Virus record (IMG/VR): IMGVR_UViG_2693429662_000008
Source: a virus
Lineage: Duplodnaviria; Heunggongvirae; Uroviricota; Caudoviricetes
DNA: 40,489 nucleotides
Reading direction: 5' to 3' (one strand)
Below the pieces are notes generated by a model. It worked only from the letters and a program-made list of their open reading frames with translations, was not told the DNA's origin and did not search any database. This document shows, in pieces, positions 35,990 through 36,248 of this stretch (within the stretch, counting starts at the first letter, position 1; every line of letters starts with the position of its first letter). A program made the position numbers and the translations under genes.

Positions 35990-36248
35990 GGTTACCACTT
36001 CAACGTAAAACCGTGGCAGGAGGTCCGGACTGAAAAAACTGGTCAGGACATCATCGGCAGGGAACGCACTGCTAGTCTGTAAACTGAACCGACTGGGGCG
36101 CAGTATGTGGCATCTTGTCGTGCTGTTGGAGGAGCTGTGCGAACGTGGTATTAACTTTCGTGCTCTGGCCCAATCTATATTTGCCCAACAATGGGGGGAC
36201 GAATGCTGTAAAAGTAAAACAATCTGCGATCTCAAAGTTATTGTGTGA
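35990..36248 (+). pseudogene. Relic of a serine recombinase (DNA invertase/resolvase) gene, truncated and frameshifted
   Basis: Translation [38 protein letters not shown] matches the conserved LVVWKLDRLGRS...ERG..F.SL.DSID core of Hin/Pin/Gin-type invertases. The N-terminal catalytic-serine region and C-terminal HTH are absent, and the upstream part is in another frame. Resembles the pinH pseudogene context of K-12 (memory). Confidence 0.6.

Follow-up and report, generated by a model that had tools for sequence, protein, structure and literature searches.

pinH, a relic of a serine DNA invertase between an IS3 remnant and the autotransporter gene ypjA of Escherichia coli

The recombinase fragment upstream of the adhesin gene ypjA in a 40,489-nucleotide stretch of DNA (IMG/VR record IMGVR_UViG_2693429662_000008; hereafter the window) is already catalogued as the E. 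coli pseudogene pinH, and is ordinary mobile-element debris. We read it, with a probability of about 0.9, as a non-functional relic of a serine invertase of the Pin/Gin/Hin type that is enzymatically inert today and most likely was never part of ypjA. The significance of a catalogued pseudogene with no evidence of present function is small; what is new here is a clean anatomy of the wreck. Its order of IS3 relic, invertase relic and autotransporter module explains the presence of an invertase fragment upstream of an adhesin gene without phase variation.

In K-12, the gene order has been given as ypjA; pinH; ypjB; ypjC; ileY (PMC10652928). Counted from the start of ypjA, the MG1655 pseudogene pinH (b2648; NC_000913.3 2783065-2783304) corresponds to window 36009-36248. 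It occupies the same locus, between ypjA and ypjB, with essentially the same sequence as the window relic, and the K-12 derivative C600 is 99.9% identical to the window over 35600-36700. The surroundings differ, as the window carries a P2-like prophage in ileY and a ypjA gene cut by an IS66-family element. The PGAP annotation of 36012-36179 reads 'recombinase family protein, incomplete', with both termini missing.

The homology to DNA invertases is confined to an internal fragment equivalent to codons ~42-101 of the 184 in PinE (Table 1). The Pfam Resolvase profile (PF00239) matches it with an E-value of 4.6e-9 and 37 bits (cut-off 23.3), only over profile positions 48-103 of 145. A tblastn search with PinE of e14 as query aligned residues 38-94 to window 36009-36179 (38 of 57 identical, 67%; E 3e-19). 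At the DNA level, nucleotides 124-303 of the 555 in pinE align to 36021-36196 at ~80% identity, with one 4-nucleotide deletion in the relic. Comparison with solved structures gave the phage Mu Gin invertase as best match (residues 39-102, 51 bits), the score for gamma-delta resolvase being 25 bits. The translation of the fragment is read in the frame starting at 35901, and because of the 4-nucleotide deletion the next conserved residues (PTMGGR, compare TPMGRF) fall in another frame. Several family-conserved residues are altered in the window copy, for example Asp to Asn (KLDRLGR to KLNRLGR), Trp to Cys, and Arg to Trp. The profile match, the similarity to PinE, the deletion and the loss of both ends bear out the description in the first-pass annotation, made from the sequence alone, of a truncated and frameshifted Hin/Pin-type recombinase fragment.

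About 60 of the 184 codons are left, all from the middle of the catalytic domain, and the first ~123 nucleotides are gone, from the 5' part in which invertase genes carry a Fis-dependent recombinational enhancer. No other piece of a recombinase gene, an N-terminal one included, was found by tblastn with PinE across the 40-kb window. Given that the homology starts at PinE codon 38-42 and that no N-terminal piece lies elsewhere, the catalytic serine (motif YxRVSTxxQ, near residue 10) is absent. The E-helix and the C-terminal helix-turn-helix DNA-binding domain are absent as well, the homology stopping at about PinE codon 101 with DNA of the autotransporter module beyond; 36202-36248 is a read-through of the open reading frame into DNA unrelated to the recombinase. 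The interval originally assigned to the fragment, 35990-36248, therefore keeps its core, while its first ~28 nucleotides (35990-36017) belong to the IS3 relic and the homology ends near 36201. Similarly, the distance of ~330 bp originally given to the adhesin start agrees with the 339 nucleotides from 36248 to the ATG at 36587, but the true end of the relic lies ~385 nucleotides from that ATG.

Table 1. Features at the right-hand end of the window, with window coordinates
Feature	Coordinates	Strand	Basis and remarks
ypjCB (K-12 ypjC + ypjB)	34302..35675	+	Annotation of collinear records; function unassigned; pseudogene here, internal stop; AT-rich, GC 32-36%; upstream neighbour of the relics
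IS3 relic	35926..36017	+	blastn against the full-length IS3 of strain C5
pinH relic	36018..36201	+	Pfam, tblastn, pinE DNA alignment, Gin match, PGAP/b2648 annotation
Autotransporter 5' module (ypjA upstream region)	36202..36586	+	ycgI paralogue, lineage comparison
ypjA (EhaD), AIDA-type autotransporter adhesin	36587..40399	+	Annotation; interrupted at 40400
End of IS66-family element, start of tnpA accessory gene region	40400..40489		100% match to IS66-like ends in many genomes

By sequence comparison, the locus is a mosaic of four unrelated pieces: the 3' region of ypjCB, the IS3 relic, the invertase relic, and the autotransporter module, consisting of its 5' region and ypjA. The IS3 relic opens with the left terminal inverted repeat, TGATCTTACCCAGCAATA at 35926-35943, which is identical to that of IS3 at 18 of 18 positions, and 35931-36017 is ~89% identical by blastn to IS3 positions 533-620, within orfB. 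These two pieces are apparently joined through a repeated TTACCC, where both overlap. The relic has no right end and no intact transposase, so that neither an intact orfA and orfB nor a pair of inverted repeats is present; a Pfam HTH_21 match within it (E 8.5e-5) falls under the curated cut-off. Its end is three bases short of the start of the recombinase homology. Between ypjB and the IS3 relic, 35796-35823 contain a terminator-like hairpin, GC-rich and 10 bp long, with a run of T on the minus strand.

To place these pieces in time, we can compare the window with N3 and AHB30, which represent divergent E. coli lineages. Both align collinearly and without gaps to the window across the two relics, with identical boundaries, and so the truncations are older than the split of the lineages. 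Boundaries common to lineages that are 8-12% divergent mark the wreck as old, inherited either vertically or by allelic exchange, and present in ~55% of E. coli. Identity of the window to N3 and AHB30 is 88% in the invertase relic, 89-96% in the IS3 relic, 90-91% in the ypjA coding sequence and 100% in the 161 bp before the ATG. The dN/dS ratio of the relic ranges from 0.64 to 2.03 among the three lineages, and an in-frame TGA interrupts the N3 copy. Ratios around 1, an in-frame stop in one lineage and the replacement of conserved residues indicate neutral evolution as a pseudogene. The earlier suggestion that the fragment may be debris of an older mobile element thus stands: it is an internal third of a Pin/Gin-type gene, fused at its 5' side to the relic of an IS3 element, and in neutral decay.

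A relic kept with unchanged boundaries in ~55% of E. coli, some 385 bp upstream of a gene that a review reports as active in biofilm formation (PMC9289746), could in principle have been co-opted for ypjA expression, whether as a promoter, as an H-NS/sigma-S region, or as the source of a small peptide from the 47-codon ORF at 36105-36248. A genomic SELEX table does list a site of the sigma-S holoenzyme between ypjA and ileY (PMC5493296), with a coordinate version that is uncertain and a placement relative to the relic that is not fixed. We consider co-option improbable, given that few segments of the locus are less conserved than the relic (88%, against 100% for the 161 bp by the ATG) and that dN/dS near 1 together with one lineage carrying an in-frame stop argues against a peptide. 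Moreover, a scan for sigma-70-type promoters on the plus strand of 35600-36700 gave no candidate upstream of ypjA, and linkage to ypjA in a small island accounts for the retention. The relic also tolerates insertion: in strain C5 (locus L002, 4745-6002) a full-length IS3 lies inside it, at a site matching window 36067-36069, and ypjA there is truncated by another IS3-family element, showing that the locus withstands disruption. We rejected the C5 element as an intact IS3 beside the relic, since it is a separate, recent insertion within it.

The control of ypjA is better sought in the invariant 161 bp adjoining the start codon than in the relic. DNA from 36202 to 36557 is 89% identical to that upstream of the autotransporter pseudogene ycgI (the ymgJ locus, adjoining minE), a locus that almost every E. 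coli possesses and in which no recombinase adjoins the module. No more than a few bases separate the start of the module homology from the end of the recombinase homology. A module with a recombinase-free paralogue, starting where the relic stops, implies that the juxtaposition is a secondary junction rather than an original unit of invertase, promoter and gene. Within the module, the 161 bp before the ypjA ATG (36427-36587) are 100% identical among the lineages, against differences of 9-12% in the adjoining relic and in the ypjA coding sequence; at least 99% identity is found in 2,924 records, and positions 1-131 of this stretch are 95-96% identical at the ycgI/ymgJ paralogue. This pattern suggests a cis-regulatory or leader region of this autotransporter family under strong constraint. 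A stable RNA fold was not supported for 36427-36587 (z +0.44), nor was there an Rfam match. An annotated 39-codon ORF lies in the module at 36403-36522 ('hypothetical protein'), without an NCBIfam match. Compared with its paralogue at the ycgI locus, this ORF has five differences, all five non-synonymous, and at the ypjA locus the K-12 ymgJ reading frame runs for only 11 codons before a stop; the conservation of the module is thus probably not protein-coding. The adhesin gene itself is a pseudogene in this strain, on account of the IS66-family interruption: its frame stops at 40453 after ~1,289 of 1,526 codons, and the C-terminal beta-barrel translocator is lost.

The position of the fragment had raised the question, in the first-pass annotation, of whether an invertible promoter once phase-varied the adhesin. 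The corresponding explanation would make pinH the relic of a Hin-like switch, arranged as site, invertase, promoter, site and gene, which afterwards became fixed in one state when recombinase and sites were lost. In the hin-fljB system, the interval from the invertase gene to the gene under its control contains the promoter and the distal site. The relic lies upstream of ypjA and is co-directional with it, as hin is with respect to fljB in the ON state, so that an ancient switch would be conceivable on geometry alone. Hin is, in addition, one member of the invertase family that inverts a promoter, and other autotransporter adhesins of E. coli are phase-variable, for example Ag43, although by a different, Dam/OxyR mechanism. 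The likeness of pinH-ypjA to hin-fljBA of Salmonella is nevertheless geometric only, in that an invertase gene lies upstream of and co-directional with a gene for a surface protein. Hin sits in a segment of ~1 kb that has hixL at one end and hixR at the other, the promoter lying on the hixR side of hin, whereas the pinH locus has no such sites, and the promoter-proximal DNA at ypjA is, unlike that at hin-fljBA, an unrelated duplicated module in fixed orientation.

The intact members of the family set a clear expectation for such sites. PinE, Gin (Mu), Cin (P1) and Hin (Salmonella) are proteins of ~184-193 residues with Ser-10 and a C-terminal helix-turn-helix, features that the relic lacks, and they adjoin 26-bp crossover sites flanking an invertible segment. 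We observed this arrangement at e14, where pix sites (TTCTCCCAAACCAACGTTT... and its inverted partner) surround a tail-fibre segment of ~1.8 kb just upstream of pinE; no crossover sites accompany the relic. Following a proposal in the first-pass annotation to look for inverted repeats resembling hix or gix over 35700-36580, we built a half-site weight matrix from seven hix/gix/pix sites, three of them read from the e14-type and metagenome loci designated L007 and L008 and four known from the literature. This matrix gives real sites 17.6-30.7 bits. The search returned no site-like match: the best 26-mer in 35600-36700 scored 0.7 bits, below the 3.5 that is the median maximum of shuffled sequence, and the best in the whole window 10.8 bits. 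Matches to the core AAACCNNGGTTT with up to two mismatches numbered 18 in the window, where 20.5 were expected, with none between 33000 and 39000. Likewise, the best inverted repeats of 14, 18 and 26 nucleotides in 35700-36580 were equalled or beaten in 121-200 of 200 shuffles, and a search of 35600-36700 for inverted or direct repeats found only short imperfect pairs. The remark that no intact flanking inverted repeats were evident by eye therefore agrees with repeats at chance level. Without a catalytic serine, a DNA-binding domain or target sites, neither the fragment itself nor pinE, pinQ or pinR acting in trans can invert DNA here.

The orientation of the segment in other genomes points the same way. 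The relic is present in 3,010 of 5,426 complete E. coli genomes, of which 3,004 align collinearly with 35680-36600 (921 bp) and 2,987 with a 2.2-kb query reaching from ypjB into ypjA. An inversion between the relic and the ATG would break coverage of the longer query, and the collinearity of the 2,987 thus speaks against it. The non-collinear exceptions that were sampled are insertions of IS1, IS3 or IS903B, or truncations, and include no inversions. In the remaining genomes, the whole ypjCB-pinH-ypjA block is absent and the query matches at ycgI only. Both orientations of the segment were not found among the assembled complete genomes (2,987-3,004 of 3,010 collinear).

Taken against the switch, then, are the lack of any surviving crossover site or inverted repeat, the origin of the relic-to-ATG interval as an independent autotransporter 5' module with a recombinase-free copy at ycgI/ymgJ, the invariance of the last 161 bp of that module in fixed orientation across ~2,900 genomes, and the lack of orientation variants among ~3,000 assembled genomes. 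The intact relatives whose context or records were inspected are also invertases of phages and plasmids, linked to tail fibres in e14, the one locus taken in detail. We regard a former switch of ypjA as very improbable, and the invertible promoter raised as a question at the outset finds no support: related genomes, as far as their assemblies show, have neither recombination sites nor orientation heterogeneity at this locus. We give just as little credence to a variant in which pinH would be all that is left of an extinct Hin-like switch serving an ancestral surface protein of the ileY-ssrA island, its promoter and distal site having been replaced by the ypjA module. Least probable of all is an origin from a transposon or plasmid resolvase of the Tn3/gamma-delta type, which would make the fragment transposon debris; the Pfam domain is common to resolvases and invertases and IS debris directly adjoins the relic, but Gin outscores gamma-delta resolvase by 51 to 25 bits, intact genes with Pin, Hin or DNA invertase annotations are 62-67% identical to it and pinE ~80% in DNA, and no further remnant of the Tn3 family lies within the window.

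Under the preferred reading, of pinH as an inert invertase relic most likely never part of ypjA, the ancestor would have been a Pin/Gin-type host-range invertase, acting on tail fibres, of a prophage formerly resident in the ileY-ssrA interval, as suggested by where its relatives sit. An IS3 insertion followed by an IS-adjacent deletion may then have removed the first ~41 codons, the neighbouring crossover site and most of the IS3 itself, and an illegitimate junction with the ypjA module would have cost everything after about codon 101. Either the IS3 insertion or the junction with the module may have come first. The ileY-ssrA interval is a hot spot for integrating elements, its occupants including a P2-like prophage in ileY (the window), CP4-57 at ssrA (K-12) and a prophage with a pin relic by ssrA (Esc28). 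At the locus itself, the pinH relic has no remnant of a tail-fibre gene or of other phage DNA beside it. A conserved 20-mer of the ypjA 5' module, sought in 185,579 species genomes, occurred only in E. coli/Shigella and in one short contig labelled uncultured Clostridiales, and so offers no outgroup information on the older state of the locus.

We also searched for an intact parent of the relic. In a collection of 5.8 billion proteins, the close relatives among the matches listed (73-98% local identity) are all E. coli fragments of 48-116 amino acids, and the closest intact genes in plasmid and phage collections, annotated Pin, Hin or DNA invertase, are 62-67% identical, for example those of Fels-2 and SEN8. 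The comparison that the first-pass annotation had envisaged, with strains carrying an intact invertase at this locus, found no such copy among the ~3,000 genomes with the relic or the protein matches listed. One candidate for an ancestral state is a protein of 116 residues (P0002) in which a pin N-terminus is fused in frame to the 3' part of pinH, with the C-terminal half still missing. It comes from the metagenome scaffold ERZ28622251 scaffold_25675 (1-1050; locus L008), where the end of a tail-fibre gene and a pix site precede it, and the scaffold ends with the right end of an IS3 at the equivalent of window 36525. The pin-pinH junction of this scaffold is absent from the 5,426 complete E. 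coli genomes. We rejected it as ancestral for this reason; an assembly chimera or a rare recombination between pin and pinH would account for it. If it is not a chimera, the relic is able to recombine with active pin genes.

The nearest counterpart of pinH as a wreck is a pin-type relic in Esc28 (locus L006, 4964-5160), which is also internal, frameshifted and near ssrA, and which covers PinE residues ~31-96, almost the same third of the gene. The segment of the catalytic domain retained in pinH is 67% identical to PinE in amino acids and ~80% in DNA, and aligns to Gin residues 39-102 as well; the Esc28 relic, by comparison, has other truncation points and is 90% identical to PinE, with only 79% DNA identity to pinH. 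It follows the tail-fibre and tail-fibre-assembly genes of a prophage, beside rnlAB and ssrA, and is probably a wreck independent of pinH.

The window as a whole is collinear with the chromosome of E. coli strain 10 (NZ_CP048330.1), with six internal mismatches; both window ends differ, the right-hand departure from the otherwise identical record falling exactly at 40400. In strain 10, ssrA follows directly after ypjA, unlike in K-12, where CP4-57 lies between the two. The order in the window is an amylase-like pseudogene, the ileY tRNA (1575-1650), the P2-like prophage, ypjCB, the relics and ypjA. An Rfam search of the window and of 35600-36700 found the ileY tRNA only. The prophage in ileY (1651-33551) looks complete, with integrase, CI, replication endonuclease, capsid, tail and tail-fibre genes, and no invertase was found in it; a partial copy of the ileY tRNA lies at 33447-33551. 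Positions 1-86 are the terminal 86 bp of an IS5-like element of the ISKpn26 family, inserted in the amylase-like pseudogene, and together with the IS66-family end at 40400-40489 this leaves the window bounded by two insertion sequences.
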